DNA of 64,000 nucleotides from a virus. Of this stretch, positions 596 to 13,068 are shown piece by piece. Within the stretch, counting starts at the first letter, position 1; every line of letters begins with the position of its first letter. The stretch covers positions 1 to 64,000 of the IMG/VR virus record IMGVR_UViG_3300028559_000015. One strand, written 5' to 3'. The notes under the pieces were generated by a model. That model ran no database searches. It saw only the letters and a program-made list of their open reading frames with translations, and was not told where the DNA came from. A program made the translations under genes and the position numbers.

Positions 596-669
596 GTACG
601 CTAAGTGTTACGGTAGCACGACTGGTTCCAACCCAGTTAGCGTGGGTTCGACTCCTACAGCGTATGCCA
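596..669 (+). tRNA. tRNA-Trp(CCA)
   Basis: ACTGG-TTCCAAC-CCAGT; G73 discriminator. Confidence 0.88.
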
Positions 670-675
670 ATTCAT

Positions 676-959
676 TTCTCAATAGTGTAAAGGAAAAATC
701 CTAGTAGCTATGGTGAAAGGGTACTTGGAACATTGCTAGTAAAATCTAGAGTAATATCACACAGTAGCAAACGCAAAGGCTTAAAAAACTGTGAGCCGGG
801 GAAGAGCCGGACAGGCTTTGTGATATGAAATAGTGCTGAAAACAATGCTAAGAGTATTTGAGTAGTCATATTGAAACGATGAAGTACGTGGTAACACTCC
901 GGCATTAGCATTTGCGTTTGGAGCCGGAAATGTTGGTTCAAGCCCAACTTGAGAAGCCA
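676..959 (+). ncRNA. tRNA-Gln-like body with ~200-nt D-loop insertion and enlarged anticodon loop
   Basis: Acceptor TTCTCAA(676-682)/TTGAGAA(949-955)-GCCA; D-stem GTGT(685-688)/ACAC(894-897); T-arm GTTGG-TTCAAGC-CCAAC. Confidence 0.7.
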
Positions 960-1041
960 GAATATTATGGAGCCGTATGCACGGTAAGGGTCGATCACTT
1001 CGCTGGTGTTTAGCGTGATTGGCTGCTCCGCCCAATTTTAT

Positions 1042-1117
1042 GCTAGGTTAGTGTCAGCGGTTAGCACACGAGTTTGTGGAACTCGGTGGATTGGTTCAAA
1101 TCCAATACCTAGTACCA
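1042..1117 (+). tRNA. tRNA-His(GTG), type lacking G-1
   Basis: CGAGT-TTGTGGA-ACTCG; preceded by T; G1-U72, A73. Confidence 0.92.
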
Positions 1118-1124
1118 ATATCAT

Positions 1125-1145
1125 GCACCCTTAGCTCAGTGGTAG
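1125..1145 (+). pseudogene. Truncated tRNA 5' fragment upstream of HNH gene
   Basis: GCACCCT-TA-GCTC-AGTGGTAG is an acceptor 5' strand plus D-arm start; no 3' half follows. Confidence 0.6.
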
Positions 1146-1192
1146 TGGTGAATTAAAAATGCTATTTTTCTACCGCTGAGCTAAATACATTT

Positions 1193-1711
1193 ATGATATA
1201 CAATTGTGATAAATGTGACAAAGAGTTCGATTCTGTTCGTAAATTGAATGGGCATAAAAGTGTTCATCGAACCAAAGGCAGATACAGTGTCAGTAGAAAA
1301 AAGCCGGAAAACAATATTAATCATTCTTGCGTTCATTGCAGCAAAACTTTTCCGCACAAACATAGTTCTTACAATAAGTTTTGTTCTATGGAATGTAGTG
1401 CAAAGTACACATGGGAACAGGTTTCTATTCCTCGCATTGAGCAAGGAATGGGTGGAAATTTTAAGAGATACCTTAAAGAATCAAGAGGTGATCAATGCGA
1501 AGAATGCAGACAACCCAGCTATCATAACGGTAAACCCCTGACATTGCAGCTTGATCACATAGATGGCAACAGTGACAATGATGCATTAGAAAATCTTCGT
1601 TTGCTTTGTCCCAACTGTCATACACAGACCCCTACTCATAGTAGAAGCGGTCCCGACAAGAAAATGACAAGAAGAAATACGCATCTACGAAAATATAGAA
1701 TGGGTCTATAG
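1193..1711 (+). CDS. HNH homing endonuclease with N-terminal C2H2 zinc finger
   Basis: CDKC...HKSVH; LQLDHIDGN...NLRLLCPNCH. Confidence 0.9.
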   Translation: MIYNCDKCDKEFDSVRKLNGHKSVHRTKGRYSVSRKKPENNINHSCVHCSKTFPHKHSSYNKFCSMECSAKYTWEQVSIPRIEQGMGGNFKRYLKESRGDQCEECRQPSYHNGKPLTLQLDHIDGNSDNDALENLRLLCPNCHTQTPTHSRSGPDKKMTRRNTHLRKYRMGL

Positions 1712-2966: not shown

Positions 2967-2971
2967 AGTTT

Positions 2972-3066
2972 GCAACGTGGTGTAATGGTAGCACAGGAAG
3001 TCCGAGAGTCGTAATGATGGGTAGGCAGCAAGATGCCAGGATGCGGGTTCGATTCCCGACGTTGTG
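2972..3066 (+). ncRNA. tRNA-like RNA with normal D- and T-arms but no canonical anticodon arm
   Basis: GCAACGT/ACGTTGT; GTGT-AATGGTA-GCAC; CGGG-TTCGATT-CCCG; no CCA. Confidence 0.6.
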
Positions 3067-3072
3067 ATTAAG

Positions 3073-3741: not shown

Positions 3742-3835
3742 GCTCCCTTAGTTTAGCGGTAAAACACCTGGCTTATATCCAGCATCGTCTCCAGATTAGA
3801 GAGCGTCACAGGTTCGAATCCTGTAGGGAGTACCA
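3742..3835 (+). tRNA. tRNA-Ile(TAT) with long variable arm
   Basis: CTGG-CTTATAT-CCAG; ~24-nt variable region; ACCA. Confidence 0.8.
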
Positions 3836-5800: not shown

Positions 5801-5889
5801 GTAGGAATGACCGAGTGGTCGAAGGTGGCAGTCTCCAAAACTGTTGTGGCGCAAGCCCCGCGTGGGTTCGAATCCTACTTCCTATGCCA
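5801..5889 (+). tRNA. tRNA with CCA (Trp) anticodon on a Ser-like long-variable-arm body
   Basis: GCAGT-CTCCAAA-ACTGT; variable arm GGC-GCAA-GCC; G73. Confidence 0.8.
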
Positions 5890-8578: not shown

Positions 8579-8660
8579 GCACCGGTGGCAGATTGGGAAT
8601 GCGGTGGACTGCAAATCCGCTACGCAAGTGAAGTAGGTTCGATTCCTACCCGGTGCTCCA
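8579..8660 (+). tRNA. tRNA-Cys(GCA) with enlarged variable loop
   Basis: GTGGA-CTGCAAA-TCCGC; U73. Confidence 0.9.
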
Positions 8661-9433: not shown

Positions 9434-9519
9434 GGGCGTATTGGACAATTGGTTGGTCCAGCAGACTCTTAATCTGCCGCAGAAATGCCTTGTGAGTTCG
9501 AACCTCACTACGCCCTCCA
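9434..9519 (+). tRNA. tRNA-Lys(CTT) with long variable arm
   Basis: GCAGA-CTCTTAA-TCTGC; extra arm GCA-GAAA-TGC; U73. Confidence 0.82.
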
Positions 9520-12229: not shown

Positions 12230-13068
12230 GGGGGCATAGCCTCACTAGGGTAGCAGGGAGTAATCTCTGTCAAAGCAAGGTTTCCTATAAACTTGCGCCA
12301 GCAATGGTCCATCTATGCAAGCCTGAGTTAGAGTTGACTCGCTTAAGCGAAAGCAACTCCCGTCTGTAGAAAGGCGGTAGGCAGTAAGTCAGAGTTGAAG
12401 TCCGAAAGGATAGGAACAGAGCCAGTCGGTGAGTTCTAAGAGGGTTGGCGCCCGAACTTCAACTAGCCAAACTGACGAATGTTGAATACTAACAGGTAGT
12501 TATTGAGTCTGACCTCGCAAGGGAAGGCAAGATAGCAATACAAACGAGGAAGGGATAACCGGAATCGTGAAGTATGATTGAGTATCCCGCAAGGAGAAAG
12601 ATACTAGGTGTGTTGTATTCTGTATCTAACAAGATATGGAGCAACTGGAGCAGCACATCTTCGTAGGTTCGCAAATTGCATAATGGTAATGCAACAGTTT
12701 TATGTACTGTAGATTCTAGGTTCAACTCCTAGTTTGTAACACAAAAGCGAAAGACTGCTCCGGTATATGTTTAAAGGTGCTTAATACCACACTCGCAAGG
12801 GAATGTGGTTCAGGGATGCTCGCAAGGCGGAACTGATTGATCGGAAAGAAAGCGTAGGTTCTTAGCGGAATCGAACTGCTCGCAAGGCAGGCGAAGGATA
12901 GATGGTCGAGTAGACATATGCGACGAGTCAAACGCCAGACTCTAAAAAAGGCAGCATTGAGTGATACTAGGTGACTGTAAAAAGCTCTAGTGGATAACGG
13001 TAGAACGGTCCTCGCAAGGGATTCGGTAATGACCAAAGACACTCGCTACAAGCCCGTAATCTCAGGGT
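12230..13068 (+). ncRNA. Large ornate RNA, probably GOLLD class, with embedded tRNA-like domain (12667-12740)
   Basis: ~840 nt without a credible ORF; about six CGCAAG-capped hairpins; GGTGTGTTGTATT; terminal hairpin GCCC-GTAATCTCA-GGGT; located in a phage tRNA array. Confidence 0.75.

Follow-up and report, generated by a model that had tools for sequence, protein, structure and literature searches.

A tRNA-Gln-shaped gene with a 198-nt D-loop insertion in a phage tRNA array, a candidate non-decoding tRNA-framed RNA

The tRNA islands of phages hold abundant RNAs of unknown function, among them the T4 stable RNAs, ROOL and GOLLD. In T4, the stable RNAs "species 1" and "species 2" (rnaC and rnaD) of the tRNA cluster are co-transcribed with tRNAs and released by the tRNA-processing enzymes, and their function is likewise unknown. 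By design, a tRNA can also carry other RNA: in the engineered "tRNA scaffold" used in bacteria, the tRNA frame gives an inserted RNA correct end processing and nuclease resistance. According to bioRxiv 10.1101/2024.12.08.627333, tRNAs are placed in the linker of the large GOLLD RNA (RF02032), and PMC3241643 counts D-loop positions among the sites of non-canonical introns in crenarchaeal tRNAs. The present work concerns an element at positions 676-959, on the plus strand, of the virus record IMGVR_UViG_3300028559_000015 from IMG/VR. The stretch analyzed, hereafter the window, comprises the first 64 kb of this 89.9-kb record (CheckV completeness 26%). The element is a gene of a giant lake phage with the shape of a tRNA-Gln, in which 198 nucleotides (nt) are inserted into the D-loop and the anticodon loop is enlarged.

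We tentatively read the element as a non-decoding stable RNA that is framed by a tRNA and cut from the transcript of the tRNA array. A preliminary description, made from the sequence alone, had offered a self-processing or switchable tRNA or a new tRNA-scaffolded non-coding RNA as interpretations. The last of these is preferred here on account of the intact tRNA core and the support from RNA libraries, whereas self-processing gained no support.

Anatomy of the element and pairing of its insert

All four stems of the element are perfect, including the D stem (GTGT 685-688 with ACAC 894-897), and the invariant bases of the tRNA core are in place (Table 1). The insertion site is located in the D-loop between positions 15/16 and 17, and the part of the loop used is the one D-loop part that varies in length among tRNAs. 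The length of the insertion is fixed at 198 nt because the D arm of the phage's own tRNA-Gln(ttg), ATAGTGTAATGGTAACAC, is reproduced exactly, in all 18 bases, once 691-888 is omitted. The D-loop measures 7 + 198 nt compared to about 7-11 nt in canonical tRNAs, and the anticodon loop 19 nt (18 nt in the relative L003, see below) compared to 7 nt. The extra 12 nt of the anticodon loop correspond to 904-915. At the 3' end of the 19-nt loop, the seven bases GTTTGGA are similar to the Gln loop TTTTGGT of the phage tRNA, with a Gln-like TTG at 918-920. U898-A928 is a possible sixth pair of the anticodon stem, and the variable loop has 4 nt (928-931). Reading of the sequence bore out the anatomy given in the preliminary description, namely an intact acceptor, D-stem, anticodon stem, T-arm and G-CCA end with a 19-nt loop; its estimate of about 197 nt for an insertion at about 691-888 became 198 nt in the D-arm comparison.

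Table 1 Features of the element, RNA contigs, L003 variants and CTA-anticodon tRNAs of relatives (window positions unless a locus is named)
Feature	Position	Strand	Pairing or remark
Acceptor 5' strand TTCTCAA	676-682	+	7/7 Watson-Crick with TTGAGAA 949-955
U8, A9 (683-684), D-stem 5' strand GTGT (685-688), A14, A15	683-690	+	same as phage tRNA-Gln D arm
D-loop insertion, 198 nt	691-888	+	first base A, last base G; boundaries by homology with tRNA-Gln(ttg)
GTACTT	721-726	+	with AAGTAC 882-887, closing insert core; read from sequence
Inverted-repeat arm	754-764	+	with 816-826, 10/11, ATATCACA/TGTGATAT
Anticodon-loop complement	768-781	+	with 907-920, 13/14; perfect 10 bp 768-777/911-920 inside
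Hairpin CCGG-GGAAGAG-CCGG	796-810	+	alternative GCCGGGG 795-801/CTCCGGC 897-903; probability 0.79-0.87, unconstrained ensemble
ATATGA	823-828	+	with TCATAT 866-871; competes with 819-826/754-761
Second loop complement AATGCTAA	844-851	+	with 905-912, 8/8; overlaps and competes with 768-781 pairing
D-loop remainder T, G18, G19, T, A21 (889-893), D-stem 3' strand ACAC (894-897)	889-897	+	
Anticodon arm, stem CCGGC 899-903/GCCGG 923-927, loop 904-922 (19 nt)	899-927	+	
T arm GTTGG-TTCAAGC-CCAAC	932-948	+	sequence and script scan
Acceptor 3' strand TTGAGAA (949-955), discriminator G956 (G73), encoded CCA (957-959)	949-959	+	
X15 contig, 212 nt	691-902		
X16 contig, 168 nt	719-886		
X19 contig, 174 nt	719-891		
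X17 contig, 178 nt	750-919		plus 9 unmatched letters
L003 variant G720A	720		unpaired position
L003 variant C724T	724		keeps G-U pair with G884; also in X15, X16
L003 variant G739A	739		breaks inner pair of 4-bp predicted hairpin
L003 variant A828G	828		keeps G-U pair with U866; also in all 4 RNA contigs
L003 loss of one T	905/906		844-851 pairing shortened to 7 bp; loop 18 nt
L003 variant A930T	930		variable loop
CTA-anticodon tRNA	L013:474-548		
CTA-anticodon tRNA	L021:4157-4231		
CTA-anticodon tRNA	L030:8121-8196		
CTA-anticodon tRNA	L031:981-1056		
CTA-anticodon tRNA	L065:8120-8194		
CTA-anticodon tRNA	L076:18050-18126		
CTA-anticodon tRNA	L080:8765-8839		

The element has the four stems, the core bases and the 3' CCA of a canonical tRNA; the loop sizes and the recognition by detectors are not those of one. 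ARAGORN called no gene in the native region 660-975, with the intron option on or off, and Rfam gave no match to the tRNA family (RF00005) over 676-959, neither at the gathering score nor at E<=10. Removal of 691-888 in silico led ARAGORN to call an 86-nt tRNA, and removal of both 691-888 and 904-915 a 74-nt tRNA-Gln(ttg), i.e. tRNA-Gln(UUG). The best match among 415 tRNAs shares the D arm only, and the body of the element is far from all other tRNAs compared. The size of the anticodon loop excludes normal decoding, in L003 as well and even if the D-loop insert were removed. Hence the element is either a non-decoding tRNA-framed RNA or a dead gene.

In favor of a framed RNA, two distinct segments of the insert are complementary to the extension of the anticodon loop. 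An inverted-repeat search recovered the perfect 10 base pairs (bp) of 768-777/911-920, the competing pairing 844-851/905-912 and the internal helix 754-764/816-826, all of them noticed before in the preliminary description together with the GTACTT/AAGTAC helix. After dinucleotide shuffling of the insert, a perfect insert-loop helix of at least 10 bp occurred in 26 of 5000 cases, and after shuffling of the loop in 73 of 5000. The insert-loop duplex reaches -17.4 kcal/mol compared to -12.2 +/- 1.9 kcal/mol in shuffles, with 16 of 1000 shuffled inserts being as good. The complementarity is rarer than chance, unusual yet not overwhelming, since the loop is U-rich and the insert A-rich. The second, overlapping pairing lowers the likelihood that both complementarities arose by chance. 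With the cloverleaf formed, the 768-781/907-920 helix crosses the D stem as a loop-loop pseudoknot and therefore cannot be scored by nearest-neighbor folding. The unconstrained fold contains this helix (probability about 0.87) along with the 795-801/897-903 form, and the D and anticodon stems are lost.

Two overlapping, mutually exclusive loop complementarities would also suit a switchable tRNA, in which the pairing with 768-781 hides UUG and the pairing with 844-851 frees it, thereby regulating decoding or charging; alternative folds within about 4 kcal/mol point in the same direction. Such a switch is nonetheless very improbable. According to established tRNA geometry, either state leaves the anticodon in a loop of 19 nt with a long helix attached, which does not suit the ribosomal decoding site. 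Moreover, the one-base deletion in L003 cuts into the 844-851 pairing (Table 1), covariation is not available, and no ligand or sensor is suggested.

RNA libraries and tests for introns and other known classes

In six metatranscriptome runs, 13-19% of the words sampled from 590-1120 were recovered. Contigs were aligned for four of these runs from four lake studies (X15, X16, X17 and X19), leaving out X18 and X20, and each of the four has one short contig contained wholly within the element (Table 1). RNA preparations from several lakes contain the insert, at least sometimes still joined to the 3' part of the tRNA. The X17 contig bridges the 3' border of the insert and continues 31 letters past the junction; therefore insert and 3' tRNA part were on one molecule there. 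The X16 and X19 contigs, which come from different studies, share 719 as their first position and have no loose ends, a weak hint of an RNA end. No contig of the element extends upstream of 691, and a joint of 690 to 889 is not listed in the contigs of the four runs. Relative to the window, the RNA contigs add the variants C762T and G767T, of which the latter would extend the long helix by a U-G pair. A second X19 contig of 345 nt has Trp joined to His with 106 other letters in between and represents a relative without the element. The contigs of the four runs leave 676-690, 929-1037 (with the small element at 967-1035) and 1124-1250 (where an HNH gene starts) uncovered, and this missing cover proves nothing; tRNA-size RNAs are not expected in such libraries. 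Contigs that cover the insert, one of them joined to the 3' part, are more in line with an RNA that is not spliced than with an intron whose removal is efficient.

The contigs can also be viewed as an excised intron together with some precursor, if the tRNA were split by a new kind of intron that leaves the D-loop by self-splicing or by an unidentified enzyme, followed by joining of the exons. The X15 contig starts exactly at the inferred start of the insert, the contigs X16 and X19 end at 886 and 891, close to its 3' end, and the last base of the insert is a G. In addition, group I introns occur, detectably, in tRNAs of this phage group. The tRNA-Leu(UAA) of L049 (L049:15946-16241), which is not called by ARAGORN, carries in its anticodon loop a group I intron of about 210-250 nt (example region L049:15920-16172) that scored 49.3 bits (E 1.2e-11) with Intron_gpI (RF00028), just below the gathering score of 50. 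This intron served as positive control: in the same search, 676-959 had no match among 4227 Rfam families, even at E<=10, and the lack of an intron or ribozyme match is therefore not due to poor sensitivity.

Further features speak against the excision of the insert. The 5' exon ends with A690 and not with the U that is a hallmark of group I introns, and the terminal G888 means little alone. A bulge-helix-bulge cannot be drawn at the borders of the insert, where GGAA 692-695 is unpairable with GGTA 890-893. Neither RtcB (PF01139) nor a tRNA splicing endonuclease (PF01974) had a match in the four records searched, three of which are complete relatives. No spliced joint is listed in the contigs, X17 passes unspliced through the 3' junction, the product would keep the 19-nt anticodon loop, and a pattern scan of IMG/VR yielded no insert-free allele of the tRNA. 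The D-loop is not known as a site of bacterial or phage tRNA introns. We therefore consider a new kind of intron quite improbable, and the self-processing proposed in the preliminary description found no support in the same observations; the search with intron models suggested there ended with no known intron class matching the insert.

Other known classes were not recognized in the element either. There was no match to YrlA/Y-RNA-like RNAs (RF02553) over 676-959 at E<=10 and no Rfam match to GOLLD over the same positions. Promoters or terminators were not found within the element, and a phage gene of the GluRS/GlnRS family was present in none of five records. The sequence GCA AAC GCA AAG GCT TAA at 767-784 resembles the reading frame of a tmRNA; this candidate was rejected because the acceptor pair is C3-G70 and not G3-U70, ARAGORN and Rfam made no such call, and the X19 variant G767T alters the first codon. 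An open reading frame (ORF) on the minus strand at 708-998 (96 amino acids) was judged not to be coding, since the one-base deletion of L003 at 905 would shift its frame. The motif ACGATGAAG, common to the insert and the L049 intron, was attributed to chance, with 31 one-mismatch matches in the window compared to 17.7 expected and with differing architectures.

Array context, distribution and weighing of the readings

The first 14 kb of the window form a plus-strand array of 38 tRNA genes (ARAGORN) that also holds small ORFs, HNH endonuclease genes and one GOLLD RNA (12605-13068, 192 bits, Rfam). The element is located between two tRNA genes of this array. It begins 6 nt past tRNA-Trp (596-669), and its downstream neighbor starts at 1042. 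An HNH gene at 1193-1711 (Pfam HNH match) is absent at that place in L003. Just upstream of it, the region 1133-1190 consists of a tRNA 5' part (TTAGCTCAGTGGTAG), 25 nt, and then a near-perfect reverse complement (CTACCGCTGAGCTAA), i.e. a hairpin from the inverted duplication of a tRNA fragment. In L003, a 294-aa PP-loop protein (L003:1732-2616) with a QueC match of 27.6 bits (cut-off 22) is encoded upstream of the tRNA array; the contig of the window begins only at the array and therefore does not include this region.

Directly 3' of the element, positions 967-1035 form a 69-nt RNA-like element that occurs only where 676-959 occurs. It has an acceptor-like 5-bp stem GGAGC/GCTCC, a hairpin CCGT-ATGC-ACGG and a long hairpin ATCAC..GTGAT with a 7-nt loop, ends with GCCCA and lacks a T arm. 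Four changes separate it from the L003 version. Two of them, G>A at 1002 and C>T at 1014, may compensate each other by turning a G-C pair into an A-U pair; RNAalifold prefers a fold that gives only G-C to G-U.

The DNA of the element recurs in the independent assemblies L003, L104 and L105, and at least half of the sampled words are present in 14 DNA runs, from lake and freshwater metagenomes; hence the DNA is real. L104 and L105, two metagenome contigs recovered through the 3' junction, show no difference from the window. The one further IMG/VR contig, L003 (33 kb), shows five substitutions and lacks one base across the 284 nt (97% identity), and both halves of the tRNA are kept together in it, in line with the co-conservation asked for in the preliminary description. 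Two of the four substitutions in the insert, C724T and A828G, are pair-keeping transitions and count in favor of the framed RNA. The arrays of the window and L003 are mosaic, with identities of 77% over 269-594, 97% over 590-1044, 99% over 1032-1145 and 84% over 1957-2457. The high identity of the block around the element could be due to constraint but equally well to recent exchange.

An AAA-ATPase gene that precedes the array in a relative was used to retrieve 80 loci of a large huge-phage group, in which complete genomes have about 360 kb. Direct Trp-His neighbors without the element occur for instance in L014, L018, L011 and L065. Since Trp adjoins His in the relatives, the element and its small neighbor at 967-1035 represent an extra block in one lineage. 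In GenBank phages, a distant blastn search with window 600-1200 found the flanking Trp and His tRNAs only. A search with nhmmer over 83 loci recovered only L001, L003 and L004, and the best foreign match to a covariance model of 719-891 over 36 sources (717 kb) had 16.8 bits (E 0.64). Several candidates were chance matches: L106 inside a coding region (metagenome scan with the 3' junction), L002, L107 and L108 (IMG/VR pattern scans) and L109, one chance 20-mer (genome contig scan). A script scan for interrupted tRNAs (perfect 7-bp acceptor, T arm, CCA) in the window and all loci then collected, except L001 and L003, revealed no second D-loop insert. It found the element, the L049 tRNA-Leu intron and the 185-186-nt RNA described in the last section, its other rows being neighboring tRNAs paired by chance.

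This distribution bears on the second outcome left by the anticodon loop. A dead tRNA gene would be a tRNA-Gln paralogue that acquired a 198-nt insertion as well as a 12-nt templated (quasi-palindrome) mutation of the loop. Owing to its place in the array it would still be transcribed and trimmed, but it would be functionless, with the complementarity as a scar. Only two near-identical phages carry the element, the Trp-His slot is empty in relatives, the arrays are rearranged as well as mosaic (77-99% identity by segment), HNH genes come and go, and an inverted duplicate of a tRNA fragment is located 170 nt downstream. Homologs of the insert were not found in the GenBank, IMG/VR, metagenome, genome-contig, nhmmer or covariance-model searches. 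A dead gene does not readily account for a tRNA body that is far from any other tRNA compared and yet has all stems and invariant core bases intact in both phages. The insert differs from that of L003 at 4 of 198 sites compared to identities of 83.6-95.8% elsewhere in the non-tRNA array, an observation that recent recombination explains equally well. A single templated event cannot explain why two separate segments of the insert complement the loop extension, and what four RNA libraries contain of this region is the insert. Taken together, we regard a dead gene as unlikely, albeit a reading to be taken seriously.

As a framed RNA, the element would be the derivative of a phage tRNA-Gln(UUG)-type gene that lost decoding and is transcribed as part of the tRNA array. 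The enzymes that process the neighboring tRNAs would release it, with RNase P acting at 676 and 3' trimming at the encoded CCA. The resulting RNA of about 284 nt would persist with the tRNA core (acceptor, D stem, T arm, G18/G19, U8-A14) as its frame. The 198-nt domain is expected to exit from the length-variable part of the D-loop; this part sits on the outside corner of the L-shape and can take up an insertion without necessarily disrupting the fold. Its segment 768-781 would clamp the enlarged anticodon loop by a 13-bp loop-loop helix and thereby hide the UUG triplet. The function would have been selected rather than the RNA tolerated as a by-product.

Several points weigh against this preferred, framed RNA. 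The element was found in none of 79 related huge-phage records (BLAST with 50 + 29 loci, E<=0.001; best match 34 nt, E 0.0035), and the relatives share the order Gln, Thr, Arg, Arg, Trp, His, Val, Ser, in which tRNA-Trp is followed by tRNA-His within 7-8 nt. The evidence from RNA libraries consists of contigs and not of reads, so that ends, strand and level are unreadable from them, and DNA can occur in RNA libraries. A transcript with tRNA-like ends may survive without function, and the inverted repeat could be a mutational scar, as a tRNA fragment stands beside its own reverse complement at 1133-1190. The folding energy is ordinary compared to shuffles (z -1.56 for 676-959 and -1.27 for the insert), and the minimum-energy fold at -72.1 kcal/mol has the D and anticodon stems broken, compared to -68.4 kcal/mol for the enforced cloverleaf without the clamp. 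The L003 variant G739A disrupts a predicted hairpin (Table 1). The insert-loop clamp itself is invariant, and a possible variant at 920-923, hinted at by the loose end of X17, would make it weaker. Covariation speaks neither for nor against the helices of the insert, because the only relative is 97% identical and both loop helices are invariant. The ordinary folding energy and the lack of covariation fit a dead gene as well.

A more specific form of the framed RNA is a natural tRNA scaffold, in which the 198-nt domain, extending from the elbow of the intact tRNA, holds the RNA's own enlarged anticodon loop through the 13-bp helix; the same segments could equally pair in trans and give head-to-tail dimers or rings. 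We consider this form improbable. Its trans-pairing variant would in principle be a small relative of the self-assembling ROOL and GOLLD RNAs at phage tRNA islands.

Enlarged tRNA-like RNAs of the phage group and comparison with known systems

A tRNA-like RNA of 185-186 nt occurs in three relatives (L007:9349-9534, L008:10176-10361 and L021:17559-17743). It has a perfect acceptor stem, a T arm, a CCA end and a 9-nt anticodon loop (AAAGTAAGG), and a domain of about 100 nt replaces the variable arm. Hairpins of this domain covary between L007 and L021 (GGAGTAAAATCC vs GGGGTAACACCC) with pairing kept. In the window, a tRNA-Ile(TAT)-like sequence is located at 12669-12740 inside the GOLLD RNA. Due to the GOLLD RNA with its embedded tRNA and the covarying 186-nt RNA, enlarged tRNA-framed RNAs form a theme of this phage group, a context that suits the framed-RNA reading of the element.

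Other enlarged tRNA-like RNAs of the group include tRNAs with long variable arms, which in bacteria are normally found in Leu, Ser and Tyr tRNAs only. In the window, tRNAs Ile(TAT) (3742-3835), Trp(CCA) (5801-5889), Cys(GCA) (8579-8660) and Lys(CTT) (9434-9519) have such arms and lengths of 82-94 nt; the long-armed Ile(TAT) form is also present in L008, L031, L032, L047 and L065. A weak tRNA match of 97 nt at 2971-3067 (29.7 bits, gathering score 29) combines a normal D arm and T arm with about 45 nt extra in place of the anticodon and variable arms and thus resembles another enlarged tRNA-like RNA. Near the AAA-ATPase gene of several relatives, a tRNA with the anticodon CTA, labeled "Pyl" by ARAGORN and of the amber-suppressor type, was predicted (Table 1); none was seen in the window or in L003 and L004. 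These tRNAs may indicate TAG recoding in part of the phage group.

If the framed RNA is confirmed, the tRNA fold itself would also serve phages as a scaffold for RNA functions of other kinds, in genes that gene finders miss. The element offers a compact 284-nt object with support from lake RNA libraries and raises the questions of how bacterial-type tRNAs tolerate or exploit large D-loop domains, whether such RNAs are charged and whether they assemble. Should it prove to be a dead gene and nothing more, it would still caution that mosaic tRNA arrays can give rise to perfect cloverleaf remnants and long complementarities.

A literature search, within the terms used, returned no phage or bacterial tRNA with a D-loop insertion. 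Among introns, the group I introns of bacterial and phage tRNAs resemble the insert in their size of roughly 200 nt, in the terminal G and in their presence in the same phage group. In contrast to the insert, which is located in the D-loop after an A and has no match, they reside in the anticodon loop after a U and match RF00028. The crenarchaeal introns share with the insert a location outside the anticodon loop. However, they are short, form a bulge-helix-bulge and depend on an archaeal endonuclease; the element lacks such a motif and shows bacterial features (encoded CCA, U1-A72), and no endonuclease gene was found in the four records searched. In the engineered scaffold, the inserted RNA replaces the anticodon stem-loop, whereas the element is natural and uses the D-loop.

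Closer parallels exist to the stable RNAs of phage tRNA islands. Like the T4 species 1 and 2, the element lies within an array of phage tRNA genes and shares their strand; RNAs of this type form a functional grouping and not a sequence family. The T4 RNAs have neither a full cloverleaf nor a D-loop domain and no sequence relation to the element, whose processing by the tRNA enzymes is presumed. GOLLD and the element are both phage RNAs of lakes that are located at a tRNA island and have a covalent link to a tRNA. A conserved RNA of 400-800 nt carries the tRNA as a passenger in the case of GOLLD; in the element, the tRNA is the frame and the extra RNA emerges from its D-loop. By analogy, the element appears to work most like the T4 tRNA-cluster stable RNAs and GOLLD with its linked tRNAs, while being a member of neither.

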